Below, piece by piece: positions 5,887 through 6,543 of a DNA stretch of 13,218 nt; position 1 is the stretch's first letter, and each line of letters starts with the position of its first letter. The stretch lies in the IMG/VR virus record IMGVR_UViG_2693429582_000029, one strand, 5' to 3'. The translations under genes were made by a program, and so were the position numbers. Origin of the DNA: a virus (taxonomy: Duplodnaviria > Heunggongvirae > Uroviricota > Caudoviricetes). Under the pieces are notes generated by a model. That model ran no database searches and had not been told where the DNA came from. It saw nothing but the letters and a program-made list of their open reading frames with translations.

Positions 5887-6360
5887 ACCCATAAAATTGC
5901 ACATCTCGCAATAAAAAGACTCGCATGATGCGCAACTTCATTTTATCTTTCTTTCCAGACCAACAAACAAGGTACTAACAAAATTTGGTTGTAACACGGC
6001 GTATGGCACATGTGTCGTTAGCGGTCTGGGGACGTTAAAGGGGACAATCCACTCCTTGCTCGGGCAAACAAACCAGGTAGCCGGAATGTGCAAGTCAATG
6101 ATGATGCTGATAAGACGCCTAACCAGCGTGGCGATCCGGTTTGACGCCTGGGAAGAGACCAGGGTGCAACGATGAGGGCATTTATGGAGCCGCGACAAAG
6201 TGTGGTGCCGTAACTGGCTAAGTGCTCTCAGCGTTGTGGTAATCCGCGAAATGGCGCGGCGGTAAGTATGGCGGGGTTACTCTTTCCCCGTTGAGGACAC
6301 CGGATTGTCAGGTTGACCATACGCCTGAGTGACAACCCCACCACAACAGCCACTGCTTTG

Positions 6361-6407
6361 GCGGTACCAGTTTGTACACTTTCTTCCGGCTGGTACCGCT
6401 CTTTTTA
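6361..6407 (+). terminator. Candidate intrinsic terminator within the early-left leader
   Basis: Perfect 10 bp inverted repeat GCGGTACCAG (6361-6370) / CTGGTACCGC (6390-6399) followed by TCTTTTT; the loop is long (19 nt). The minus-strand flank is not U-rich, so the orientation is plus. Confidence 0.45.
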
Positions 6408-6494
6408 CAAAACAGAGAAGAGCATCACCGGACGACGGGCTCATAACCCAATCCACCCGGGCGGATGCCACCGCAGGTGTTCTTCTCTGTTTTG
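6408..6494 (+). promoter_or_regulatory. Long RNA hairpin (16 bp stem with one G-U pair, ~55 nt structured loop) directly upstream of the YfdP-like RBS
   Basis: CAAAACAGAGAAGAGC (6408-6423) pairs with GTTCTTCTCTGTTTTG (6479-6494); the intervening sequence is GC-rich with further local complementarity. Confidence 0.4.
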
Positions 6495-6543
6495 TGGAGA
6501 AACCAACCGACCTTGCAGGGTCGATATGATGAGGAGCAGCAAA

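Follow-up and report, generated by a model that had tools for sequence, protein, structure and literature searches.

A gap-poor chain of conserved structured RNAs, arranged like a tRNA array, in the presumed early-left leader of a lambdoid prophage

Results

A chain of RNA modules between the repressor gene and yfdP

The window analysed here is the whole 13,218-nt stretch of the IMG/VR virus record IMGVR_UViG_2693429582_000029. Between positions 5887 and 6543 it was non-coding and strongly structured on the plus strand, where an almost gap-free chain was found in the order M1, D2, M2, linker with DicF-type terminator, M3, small hairpin and ribosome binding site (RBS). M1, M2 and M3 are uncatalogued, being matched by none of the models of Rfam 15. 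The modules are autonomous; each is conserved via compensatory changes and is also found alone in unrelated phages. We put at roughly 0.55 the probability that the interval is the untranslated early-left (pL) leader and that this leader is a tRNA-array-like cassette of non-coding RNA genes, processed into stable RNAs and an sRNA of the DicF family. The features are as follows:

5862-5879, plus strand: intrinsic terminator of the cI-like repressor gene (terminator scan; the same feature is annotated in SfII)
5896-5935, unstranded: operator-like sites TTGCACATCTCGCAA and CGCATGATGCGCAA and presumed pL (9-mer CGCAATAAA common to OR)
5988-6168, plus strand: M1, RNA of ~180 nt with four helices and two H-type pseudoknots (alignment A1, pair counts)
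6166-6237, plus strand: D2, long hairpin CAACGAUGAGGGCAUU ... AGUGCUCUCAGCGUUG with a variable insert (compensatory changes in the arms across loci)
6229-6356, plus strand: M2, RNA of ~115 nt with its core at 6234-6351 (alignment A2, pair counts)
6360-6406, plus strand: DicF-type intrinsic terminator, stem 6360-6370/6390-6400, U-run 6402-6406 (alignment with the dicF terminator)
6407-6495, plus strand: M3, three-way-junction RNA with a closing stem of ~18 bp, ACAAAACAGAGAAGAGCA/UGUUCUUCUCUGUUUUGU (consensus folding)
6508-6523, plus strand: small hairpin CGACC-UUGCAG-GGUCG between M3 and the RBS (covarying stem)
6531-6546, plus strand: Shine-Dalgarno GAGGAG and ATG of the yfdP-like gene (read from the sequence)

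An earlier note on this DNA had proposed that the interval occupies the position of a pL leader and is rich in genuine RNA structure, and both proposals were borne out. Its interpretation as a whole was partly supported; what it missed is a mosaic of separately mobile, tRNA-array-like modules. Its description as hairpin-rich holds beyond chance, with z-scores for the folding of 5960-6545 of -4.4 on the plus strand and -3.1 on the minus strand. The stretch described as merely GC-rich is indeed present, but two sequence-conserved pseudoknotted RNAs common to P1, epsilon15-like phages and Qin had been overlooked in it. Two follow-ups suggested there were informative: comparison of homologues revealed compensatory base changes in M1, M2 and M3, and the search with Rfam 15 covariance models yielded nothing but noise for 5887-6543. 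At the gathering threshold on the whole window, nothing was found in the interval, and C4 and isrK were found elsewhere only; at E <= 10 on 5800-6650, in a search that covered the C4 clan, ROOL, GOLLD, riboswitches and ribozymes, there were just two chance-level matches (E 1.4 and 1.7).

Boundaries, operator-like sites and coding status

Upstream, the interval is limited by the terminator that follows the repressor gene (5149-5841, Peptidase_S24 and HTH domains). Its downstream limit is the Shine-Dalgarno sequence and ATG of the yfdP-like gene, the first early-left gene. This gene had been correctly named as the boundary before, but its start codon is the ATG at 6544, not 6545. The ORF (6544-6906) gives a clean translation and goes under the annotation YfdP in E. 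coli genomes; it had no Pfam match, and its N terminus is not arginine-rich.

The 9-mer CGCAATAAA occurred exactly twice in the window, at 5124 (OR) and 5907, against an expectation of 0.2, and a count of two was reached in 2 of 200 shuffles. CGCAA was not enriched (33 found, 36 expected); five copies clustered in 63 bp at OR, and only two lay at 5907-5935. Of the operator-like half-sites described earlier, the shared 9-mer thus stands, but the CGCAA copies amount to these two with no window-wide enrichment, and so the reading of 5896-5935 as OL is plausible but weak. Since no consensus sigma-70 promoter was found at 5880-5990, we can only infer the start of pL transcription, at ~5950-5975. 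Homology to phages of other immunity types starts at window position ~5968-5977.

Could the interval be a decayed N-like gene or another pseudogene, or else contain a genuine minus-strand small protein gene as annotated in mEp460 and SfII? Hypothetical proteins are annotated across the homologous stretch in mEp460, SfII, cdtI and others, and mechanical ORFs lie in or over the interval at 5938-6198 (minus), 6277-6732 (minus) and 6329-6529 (plus), those on the minus strand being 86 and 151 codons long. However, none of the three had a Pfam match, and no reading frame was open across 26 diverse M1 homologues. Four of these had stops in all six frames, and 20 differed in length from the window by a number that is not a multiple of three. 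Substitutions on the plus strand were instead compensatory for RNA helices. The coding reading is already contradicted by these observations, and we give it practically no credence. The earlier statement that there is no credible ORF is therefore upheld, whereas the decayed N gene suggested alongside it is not, as no frame is kept. RefSeq annotation at these RNAs consists of nothing or of spurious ORFs.

M1, a pseudoknotted RNA that often neighbours tRNA genes

In the M1 alignment, 97.6% of cells were paired and 11 pairs showed compensatory change, compared to 28-45% pairing in slid controls. The single-stranded blocks GGUAGCCGGAAUGUGCAAG, AUGGCACAU, GGCGAU and GAAGAG were invariant. The pseudoknot GCACAU:AUGUGC was also invariant, so covariation cannot support it. 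Conserved G.U pairs assigned M1 to the plus strand. Covariance model R1 scored 147 bits at M1 of the window and had further matches in P1, mEp460 and Kosakonia. A contig scan with the 14-mer TAGCCGGAATGTGC returned almost solely chance matches; when two Enterobacterales loci from it were scanned with R1, only Kosakonia sacchari matched. Beyond the phage collections, the taxonomic range of the modules is thus sparsely sampled.

M1 stood alone in 77 of 120 loci and in the arrangement M1-M2-M3 in 20 of 120. About 50 of 128 loci had tRNA neighbours on the same strand as M1. It abuts tRNA-Ile2 in P1, and tRNA-Ile2 ends a few nucleotides before M1 in P1-like elements; in epsilon15-like phages, M1 lies one hairpin upstream of tRNA-Arg. 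M1 is located 2.3 kb inside the ban operon of P1, and one M1 copy lies beside the P1 helicase gene ban.

D2 and the tRNA slot

The hairpin following M1, D2, has a stem of 12-16 bp, and its 3' arm is the 5' leader of a tRNA slot. Covariance model R3 scored only 11.8 bits (E 1.3) at D2 of the window and 16-23 bits at the equivalent hairpins in Qin, Evi, typing phage 10 and a Klebsiella phage, all of which end at the start of M2 or tRNA-Arg. D-type hairpins recur between the tRNA genes of P1-like elements, and in P1 there are D-type matches on the strand opposite the ORFs plp and upl.

Alignment placed M2 where epsilon15-like phages have tRNA-Arg(UCU), which begins at the end of D2 on the same strand. 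The epsilon15-like unit comprises an apparent promoter of its own (judged by eye), M1, D2, tRNA-Arg(UCU), a spacer and a DicF-type terminator; M2 thus sits in a tRNA slot. The leader AGUGCUCUCAGCGUU stands before the tRNA in some loci and before M2 in others. Between the flanks GTTGTGG ... CCACAAC lies M2, tRNA-Arg or a further kind of insert, and mEp460 has a different cassette between the same flanks. In typing phage 10, the tRNA is followed by a spacer and a DicF-type terminator. What M2 shares with tRNA-Arg is limited to the slot, the 5' leader and the initial four bases GUGG, and ARAGORN detected no tRNA or tmRNA in the window, so M2 was not recognised as tRNA-like.

The M2 fold is closed by the stem GUUGUGG/CCACAAC and further comprises two hairpins, CCGCG/CGCGG and GGGG/CCCC (the second with a pyrimidine-rich loop), the pseudoknot GUAUGG:CCAUAC and the helix GGAUUGUCA/UGACAACCC. 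Overall, 92% of cells were paired and eight pairs showed compensatory change. The helix CCGCG/CGCGG had several broken cells and zero compensatory change, and P1-type copies lack the closing stem. M2 was not matched by the models of the Rfam C4 clan. Covariance model R2 scored 144 bits at M2 of the window, 151 bits in K-12 Qin, where M2 is the directly upstream neighbour of dicF, and 99 bits in P1, just downstream of Pban and beside an annotated "dicF-like region". The literature searched contained no account of M2 itself, nor of any structured RNA ahead of dicF or beside trnI in P1.

A T5 run follows M2 in 125 of 130 loci, and a terminator lies 15-45 nt downstream of it in 125 of 130. In P1, the ban operon opens with M2, and for the tRNAs and ban to be expressed, polymerase must get past a strong terminator downstream of M2. 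Complementarity was searched by eye among the pyrimidine-rich loops of M1 and M2, the GAAGAGA loop of M1, RBSs and the tRNA-Arg anticodon loop; nothing was consistent across homologues.

A DicF-type terminator followed by M3

Behind a short CA-rich linker (6343-6359), the terminator-like hairpin seen previously proved genuine, with its stem at 6360-6370/6390-6400 and a T-run at 6402-6406. The idea that it could end an sRNA stands; the hairpin is DicF-related and has the same place relative to M2 as dicF in Qin. The window and dicF have the terminator arm UUUGGCGGUAYCAGUUU in common and share UUUGGCGGUACCAGUUU; an intrinsic terminator bearing the GGCGGUAYCAG arm thus stands in the early-left untranslated region of this lambdoid prophage. 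The 5' part of DicF, UUUCUGGUGACG, is missing in an alignment with Qin and Evi, as is the 19-nt block TATCAATTTTCTGGTGACG. The Rfam DicF model (RF00039) gave no match, whether the window was searched at its gathering score or 5800-6650 at E <= 10. Any sRNA released at this terminator would be very short.

Because of CACAACA and the terminator at 6343-6406, we considered the anti-sRNA AgvB and rejected it: it maps to the PR' moron site, is covered by a separate Rfam model, and shows no relation to the interval in its published sequence. The Pas sRNAs and HnrS are located in late-gene regions and are not relevant. The core sequences of the modules were absent from the supplement of Tree et al. 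2014.

The long stem with a structured loop after the terminator was likewise genuine and corresponds to M3. Consensus folding predicted 31 pairs, nine with compensatory change, around the invariant interior GACGGGCUCAUAACCCAAUCC. A T5 run precedes M3 in 116 of 122 loci. R3 scored 103 bits at M3 of the window; its other matches in the window were the reverse strand of M3, D2 and two at E > 4, leaving one real M3 copy. M3 appears related to D2 and is a probable RNase III site. The small hairpin downstream covaries in its stem (CGCCC/GGGGC, GGCGG/CCGCC, AGCGG/CCGCU), with the loop kept as (U/G)(U/G)GCAG.

Spread of the leader

Separate BLAST segments of the interval were found in P1/P7, phiV10/TL-2011b/SPN1S, Evi, SfV and ST64B. 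Parts of the leader were present in 4788 of 5426 complete E. coli genomes, and also in P1-type phage-plasmids and in phages or prophages of Salmonella, Shigella, Klebsiella and Kosakonia. Phage 2H10 carries M1-M3 at 98% identity. The three conserved RNAs lie outside Rfam 15, yet parts of this leader are present in most E. coli genomes.

Discussion

Proposed processing of the leader

Reasoning from the order of the modules and from dicF in Qin, we propose the following. Upon inactivation of the repressor, pL would transcribe the array. RNase P may cut the D2/M2 junction, at the same site as it would for a tRNA, and RNase E may trim the linker, giving a short DicF-family sRNA that ends at the terminator. 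A fraction of polymerases would read through the DicF-type terminator into the early-left genes. On these read-through transcripts, RNase III could cut the long M3 stem and perhaps D2, separating the RNA genes from the yfdP mRNA as published for dicF and dicB in Qin. M1 and M2 themselves would persist as stable RNAs, and their strongly conserved cores would be bound by a conserved partner from host or phage. A role in processing does not explain the very high sequence conservation of the M1, M2 and M3 cores.

Alternative readings

The earlier note had suggested a leader controlled by antitermination, either nut-like or put-like. The nut-like version failed. The boxA-like string CGCTCTTTTTACAA at 6397-6410 consists of the 3' arm and U-run of the terminator, and its resemblance to boxA is coincidental, since it is not kept in homologues, which have CCGTCCTTTTT, CGCCCTTTTT or CCGCATTTTTTT. 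No conserved boxA (CGCUCUUA / UGCUCUUUAACAA) was found in the interval, nor was a boxB-type hairpin, which would have a GNRA-like pentaloop: just one small hairpin is conserved (6508-6523), and its loop is the 6-nt UUGCAG. There was also no adjacent arginine-rich N. A put-like element by homology did not hold up either, as the models for M1, M2 and M3 had no meaningful match in the HK022 pL/pR region: R1 and R2 found nothing in the HK022 loci at E <= 1, and R3, run up to E <= 10, gave only matches with E of about 0.9-6, none of them on putL. Read directly, putL had only the 9-mer GCGCGGCGG in common with M2.

An alternative is processive antitermination by RNA, analogous but not homologous to HK022 put. 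M1, the element that comes first in the pL transcript, and/or M2, which is always directly followed by an intrinsic terminator, would fold on the nascent RNA and modify RNA polymerase, enabling it to pass the DicF-type terminator and to withstand Rho along the long untranslated array. The location just downstream of pL resembles that of putL, no N-like first gene is seen, and cores as strongly conserved as these would suit the binding of a conserved machine, for instance RNA polymerase. The spacing of 15-45 nt between M2 and a terminator in nearly all loci, and the strong terminator between M2 and the tRNAs and ban of P1, point in the same direction. Specialists have already suspected a put-like RNA in N-less lambdoids related to 2H10 (PMC12315714), the phage with near-identical M1-M3. 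Yet beyond the 9-mer, putL and putR share neither sequence nor structure with the modules, and no second copy was found in the rightward operon, M1, M2 and M3 being single-copy and on the plus strand. M1 also lies far inside the ban operon of P1 and beside a tRNA in epsilon15-like phages. M2 can be replaced by a tRNA gene or another cassette, which fits a gene product better than a polymerase modifier, and since a terminator of this kind is also present where the unit contains the tRNA, it looks like the normal end of an RNA gene unit. We therefore consider this mechanism unlikely.

The replacement of M2 by a tRNA before the same kind of terminator also counts against a riboswitch or attenuator, in which M2 (or M1) would be an aptamer sensing a ligand or factor and the DicF-type terminator the expression platform gating the early-left genes. 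A conserved pseudoknotted domain of ~115 nt, followed by an intrinsic terminator in nearly all loci and located in a 5' untranslated leader, is what such an element would look like. However, M2 is separated from the terminator by a spacer of variable length and sequence, the terminators are of different kinds (DicF-type and P1-type), inspection by eye revealed no conserved alternative pairing of M2 with a terminator arm, and the downstream genes are unrelated between phages; we find a switch of this kind highly improbable. Slightly different evidence bears on the idea that the inverted repeats act as DNA, either as recombination sites at cassette boundaries or as single-strand hairpins (attC-like or for priming) that drive module shuffling. 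The exchange of M2, tRNA-Arg and other inserts between the flanks GTTGTGG ... CCACAAC, the recurrence of D-type hairpins between tRNA genes of P1-like elements and the M1 copy adjoining the helicase gene ban are in keeping with it. All modules nevertheless share the strand and orientation of adjacent tRNAs and terminators, and their conserved G.U pairs, covarying pseudoknots and invariant single-stranded loops are typical of folded RNA. As the flanks do not fit the integron core-site consensus (read by eye) and no dedicated recombinase is linked to the modules, a role as DNA seems very remote to us.

Implications

A broader reading joins these points, and we offer it tentatively, as possible but at clearly less than even odds. 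In it, M1, M2 and M3 would be three uncatalogued classes of structured phage RNA: M1 would be a tRNA-linked RNA with two pseudoknots, and a central host machine would be bound or acted on by its near-invariant core; M2 would occupy a tRNA slot as an RNA gene that does not encode a tRNA; and DicF would be a product of the M2 3' trailer. A parallel for the last is 3'ETS-leuZ, which derives from a tRNA operon. If this were true, the M1 core could target RNA polymerase, making M1 an antiterminator that resembles put without being related to it, or else the machinery of tRNA processing or of translation, or M1 could be a decoy for a defence nuclease that attacks tRNAs. M2 is the so far unnoticed neighbour of the cell-division sRNA DicF, which is among the bacterial sRNAs known for longest, and this alters the view of DicF biogenesis. 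Many lambdoid phages lack N, and M1, M2 and M3 are the obvious candidates for how such phages pass early terminators. The organisation around the tRNA slot suggests that temperate phages swap RNA genes, tRNA and non-tRNA alike, as cassettes between conserved hairpins.

Comparison with known systems

The leader has the same map position as the nutL/N leader of lambda, from pL to the first early-left gene. The N leader of lambda contains a hairpin cut by RNase III. In contrast to nutL, the window has no conserved boxA and no boxB-type pentaloop hairpin, and an N-like protein was not found beside it. HK022 putL and putR resemble the modules in being RNAs encoded in cis just downstream of an early promoter of an N-less lambdoid phage, with terminators downstream of both. 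They differ in being ~70 nt long, with two stem-loops, and present in both early operons, whereas M1, M2 and M3 measure 90-180 nt, two of them pseudoknotted, are single-copy, have no similarity to put by model or sequence and are found outside the early operons of lambdoid phages as well. Terminator read-through by put is factor-independent and depends on the beta' zinc-binding domain of RNA polymerase.

T7-type intercistronic RNase III sites are comparable to D2 and M3 in that the latter have long covarying stems and lie, as D-type elements, between RNA genes, tRNAs and ORFs of polycistronic phage transcripts. There is no sequence relation, and the elaborate conserved three-way junction modelled for M3 would be unneeded in a simple cleavage site. 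The C4 antisense RNA of P1/P7 (RF01695), a true copy of which Rfam placed elsewhere in the window (3702-3789, minus strand), is also a non-tRNA structured RNA of an immunity-linked operon. According to work attributed to Hartmann et al. in 1995, C4 is reportedly released from its precursor by RNase P via a tRNA-like stem, and release by RNase P is the route that we propose for M2. The M2 fold differs from that of C4 (pseudoknot plus three hairpins), and no target repeats were identified.

RNAs of phage tRNA clusters (T4 species 1 and 2, ROOL, GOLLD) provide another likeness: M1 is structured, conserved and abuts phage tRNA genes on the same strand, and M2 fills a tRNA slot. The T4 species 1 and 2 RNAs are stable RNAs co-transcribed within a phage tRNA cluster, and ROOL and GOLLD neighbour tRNAs in prophages. 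ROOL and GOLLD are both in Rfam and had no match here, M1 is much smaller, and the hosts of M1 and M2 are temperate phages of Enterobacterales.

A close counterpart in layout is dicBF of Qin. Qin lacks M1 and M3 and has the small ORFs ydfABC between promoter and untranslated region, and the window lacks the DicF 5' sequence and a match to the Rfam DicF model. Both share the order of immunity repressor, early-left promoter (presumed in the window), long untranslated stretch, sRNA (putative in the window) at an intrinsic terminator, long stem and RBS of the next gene, and in Qin M2 (151 bits) is directly upstream of dicF. According to PMC5069750, dicF lies within a "long untranslated region"; RNase E generates its 5' end, and its 3' end is set either by termination, giving 53 nt, or by RNase III, giving 72 nt. 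In Qin, the 19 additional nucleotides of the longer form fall in a 16-bp stem after the dicF terminator. M3 has the position analogous to that stem, where the published RNase III cut falls (PMC5069750), and this published processing by RNase E and RNase III is the source of the model proposed here.

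Genomic Setting of the Leader

The window is a lambdoid prophage of E. coli, and E. coli O103 ML775 is 100% identical to it across the interval under study (5887-6543). A cI-like repressor gene (HTH and Peptidase_S24) faces a Cro-like and a CII-like gene. The next credible gene after the repressor terminator is a yfdP-like ORF, which places the interval at the site of pL, nutL and N in lambda. As the earlier note had stated, the interval holds no credible ORF: only mechanical ORFs were present, with a Pfam match for none. The hairpins it reported were found at the positions it gave, and folding of 5960-6545 yielded z = -4.4 on the plus strand and -3.1 on the minus strand. 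We show that this leader strings together structured RNAs on the plus strand in the manner of a phage tRNA array; its parts and neighbours are:

4791-5051, minus strand: Cro-like gene
5149-5841, plus strand: cI-like repressor gene
5862-5879: terminator of the repressor gene
5988-6168, plus strand: M1, structured RNA module
6166-6237: D2, long hairpin directly after M1
6229-6356, plus strand: M2, structured RNA module
6360-6406, plus strand: intrinsic terminator, DicF-type
6407-6495, plus strand: M3, structured RNA module starting directly after the U-run of the terminator
6544: start ATG of the yfdP-like ORF, followed by a DUF2303 gene

The claim of operator-like sites was borne out in part: CGCAATAAA has just two occurrences, 5124 and 5907, and CGCAA half-sites cluster at the operator region OR, but CGCAA is not enriched window-wide and just two copies lie at 5907-5935. 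A scan found no consensus promoter for pL at 5880-5990. From ~5968-5977 of the window onward, the cdtI, 2H10, Ayreon and Stx2c phages, which have other immunity regions, share ~98% identity with it, as expected where the immunity module ends with its promoter; we therefore infer a pL start at ~5950-5975.

Elsewhere on the minus strand, Rfam models matched two RNAs of the rightward operon, a C4 antisense RNA at 3702-3789 (82.8 bits) and an isrK RNA at 3814-3890 (63.7 bits), both within a 382-codon ORF (3102-4250). The Phage_ASH Pfam match of this ORF (residues 117-212; the Rha domain covers 222-307) spans exactly the two RNA genes, so its Ash-like portion may be translated RNA genes and not genuine protein. 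A weak match to CHAT, a caspase-like protease domain, occurs in a 729-aa ORF (9735-11924) that adjoins a tyrosine integrase (12001-13218); both are on the minus strand and convergent with the early-left genes. Possible readings are a cargo or defence gene and an element integrated separately.

Mosaic Make-Up and Spread

In BLAST searches against phage genomes, the query broke into segments found separately in unrelated phages:

~5983-6239: P1/P7 and other P1-like elements, phiV10/TL-2011b/SPN1S (epsilon15-like) and a Klebsiella phage
~6233-6355: Evi, PPompW prophages, a record named Actinobacillus phage, a second P1 site and K-12 strains
~6339-6545: SfV, SfIV, ST64B and others

At least one part of the interval was present in 4788 of 5426 complete E. 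coli genomes (median two places per genome), with 279 places plasmid-borne. An IMG/VR scan with an invariant 19-mer of M1 returned 120 loci, of which 77 carried M1 alone, 20 carried M1-M2-M3 as in the window and 16 carried M1 and M3, mostly with another cassette in the place of M2. When the M2 or M3 motif brought up new loci, these mostly carried that single module. M2 is also present, at 85% identity, in the record PP818812.1 ('Actinobacillus phage vB_Apl-pPE4'), where its neighbours are DicA-like, YdaT, Kil and exonuclease VIII genes of the kind that characterises Rac/Qin-like prophages of E. coli; it looks as if either the host assignment of the record is doubtful or M2 crosses family boundaries.

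Structured RNA Modules

M1 and M2 were each characterised by alignment, pairing counts and a covariance model (R1 and R2). The alignment of 26 diverse M1 copies supported four helices and two H-type pseudoknots: 97.6% of cells pair and 11 pairs are changed on both sides; when partners are shifted by 1-3 columns, pairing drops to 28-45% of cells. The RNA is assigned to the plus strand by its conserved G.U pairs. Of the two pseudoknots, GCACAU:AUGUGC never varies, so that covariation cannot prove it, and the second does show covariation (C-G in 23 sequences, A-U in three). Since the alignments were drawn from pattern-selected loci, invariant blocks are invariant partly through selection. R1 detected a single M1 copy in the window and none in HK022, Qin, SfII or Evi.

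Part of the M1 loci have a tRNA gene as neighbour. Its match in P1 begins directly after trnI (tRNA-Ile2, anticodon CAU) and stops before ban, and epsilon15-like phages have tRNA-Arg(UCU) downstream. Among 128 M1 loci (those of the scan, earlier loci and the window), tRNA-Arg(UCU) begins ~165 nt past the motif in ~32, and tRNA-Ile2 ends just before M1 in ~18, in both cases on the same strand.

M2 lies in a tRNA slot. The leader AGUGCUCUCAGCGUU precedes tRNA-Arg (GUGGCAU...AUGCCACGCCA) in phiV10, SPN1S and the Klebsiella phage; in the window it precedes GUGGUAAUCC...CCCACCACAACA, which is M2, and mEp460 has another insert between flanks identical to those of M2. Pairing holds in 92% of M2 cells, with compensatory change in eight pairs at modest sequence diversity. 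Covarying elements include the pseudoknot GUAUGG:CCAUAC, which reads GCAUGG:CCAUGC in P1, as well as the helix GGGUUGUCA/UGACAACCC; the CCGCG/CGCGG hairpin is weakly supported. R2 gave M2 of the window 144 bits. Its hit in K-12 Qin reached 151 bits (1997-2124 of locus L010, ~7 nt upstream of dicF), and that in P1 reached 99 bits, ~25-35 nt past the Pban start and beside the annotated "dicF-like region".

The 3' arm of M2 contains CACAACA (6343-6349), just upstream of the terminator; this is the consensus target of the GcvB R1 seed, a motif mimicked by AgvB (PMC4104026). Qin-type copies do not keep it and have CGCUGCAAC. Variable hairpins of M1 in many loci, and M2 at 6285-6292, bear pyrimidine-rich loops, often UUCCUU, CUCCUU or CCUCC, that resemble the anti-Shine-Dalgarno sequence; no consistent partner sequence was found for them.

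The arms of D2 (CAACGAUGAGGGCAUU ... AGUGCUCUCAGCGUUG) show compensatory changes between loci, e.g., GGAAAAGGCG/CGCCGUUUCC and GAGAGCGCAC/GUGCGCUCCC. Its insert is strongly variable, and its 3' arm doubles as the 5' leader for the next element, whichever that is. Some inserts carry T-arm-like motifs (GGTTCAATTCC and GTTCGATTC in SPN1S, locus L008 2620-2720; AAAGGTTCGATTCCTTT in locus L106, ~3790-3860), which suggests tRNA fragments or tRNA-like inserts uncalled by ARAGORN.

A T-run precedes M3 in 116 of 122 loci. Consensus folding of 20 M3 copies predicted 31 pairs, nine with compensatory change, in a closing stem of ~18 bp and a three-way junction with an invariant loop region, GACGGGCUCAUAACCCAAUCC. 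Downstream follow a conserved GUGGAGAAACYAAC, a small covarying hairpin (6508-6523) and the RBS of the following ORF, whichever that is. The M3 model R3 scored 103 bits on M3 and only 11.8 bits on D2 of the window. At 16-23 bits it also matched the hairpins that correspond to D2 in Qin, Evi, typing phage 10 and the Klebsiella phage, all of which run up to M2 or to the start of the tRNA, and in two further loci (L067, L038) the hairpin in the D2 position bears the M3 interior motif. From these findings we regard D2 and M3 as probable members of one hairpin family separating RNA genes, tRNAs and ORFs. R3 also found four plus-strand sites in the P1 ban operon (L003 1054-1136, 1493-1581, 1719-1814 and 1995-2075; 19-41 bits), one beginning just past trnT. 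Three of these sites overlap ORFs annotated on the minus strand, plp and upl, which may be a misannotated RNA array.

Terminator and Relation to DicF

Behind M2, 125 of 130 loci have a variable 10-45-nt linker and then an intrinsic terminator; in Qin, linker and terminator are DicF, the cell-division sRNA. The terminator of the window is a new DicF relative that fails the family model: its arm UUUGGCGGUACCAGUUU is DicF-like, the DicF 5' block is absent, and the Rfam DicF model gave no match there. In P1, M1 is directly followed, a short way ahead of the ban RBS, by AUUUUCUGGUGAUGAC (L003 ~3200-3225), nearly identical to the DicF 5' sequence UUUCUGGUGACG that the terminator of the window lacks. 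Typing phage 10 has a sigma-70-like promoter ~75 nt upstream of M1 (by eye) and, behind tRNA-Arg and a spacer, a DicF-type terminator (GGCGGUGAU...AUCACCGCCCUUUUU). Because this terminator also stands behind a tRNA, M1, D2, X, spacer and terminator form one unit, X being a tRNA, M2 or another cassette.

Proposed Working and Alternatives

In the most likely reading, induction would fire pL, RNase P would cut the D2|M2 junction as for a tRNA, and RNase E would trim the linker. The terminator would end a short DicF-family RNA and attenuate transcription; in read-through transcripts RNase III would cut M3, and perhaps D2, freeing the yfdP mRNA. We infer where the promoter and each of the cleavage sites lie. 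That the cores of M1, M2 and M3 hardly vary implies specific partners for them.

The serious rival is RNA-mediated antitermination by the leader modules: the phage appears to be without N, M2 precedes a terminator in nearly all loci, and a put-like RNA has been suggested by workers on related N-less lambdoids (PMC12315714). The put-like leader of the earlier note was not supported by homology, however, as neither R1-R3 run on HK022 nor a reading of its putL region revealed similarity to put, and the rightward operon has no second module copy. Moreover, a tRNA can take the place of M2, and the unit with the tRNA bears the same terminator. A riboswitch and cassette sites acting at the DNA level are less likely, as is a pseudogene; no reading frame is conserved among M1 homologues.

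Comparison with Known RNAs

The comparative check proposed for the stems gave compensatory changes in all three modules, and the covariance-model search proposed with it matched M1, M2 and M3 to nothing in Rfam 15. We did not find them described in the literature searched, outside which a description is possible. We rate the finding as belonging with phage leader or tRNA-array RNAs, with a substantial chance of genuinely new RNA classes among it.

One close known system is dicBF, in the homologous region of Qin. There, dicF lies in a long untranslated region; RNase E makes its 5' end, and its 3' end arises by termination (53 nt) or, in transcripts that have read through, by an RNase III cut (72 nt) (PMC5069750). 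The extra 19 nt of the longer form fall in a 16-bp stem (AGUGAAUUUUGUGAUG/CAUCACAAAAUUCAUU) that spans from the terminator to the dicB RBS and occupies the position held by M3 in the window. The two systems share the general logic of a processed early-left untranslated region.
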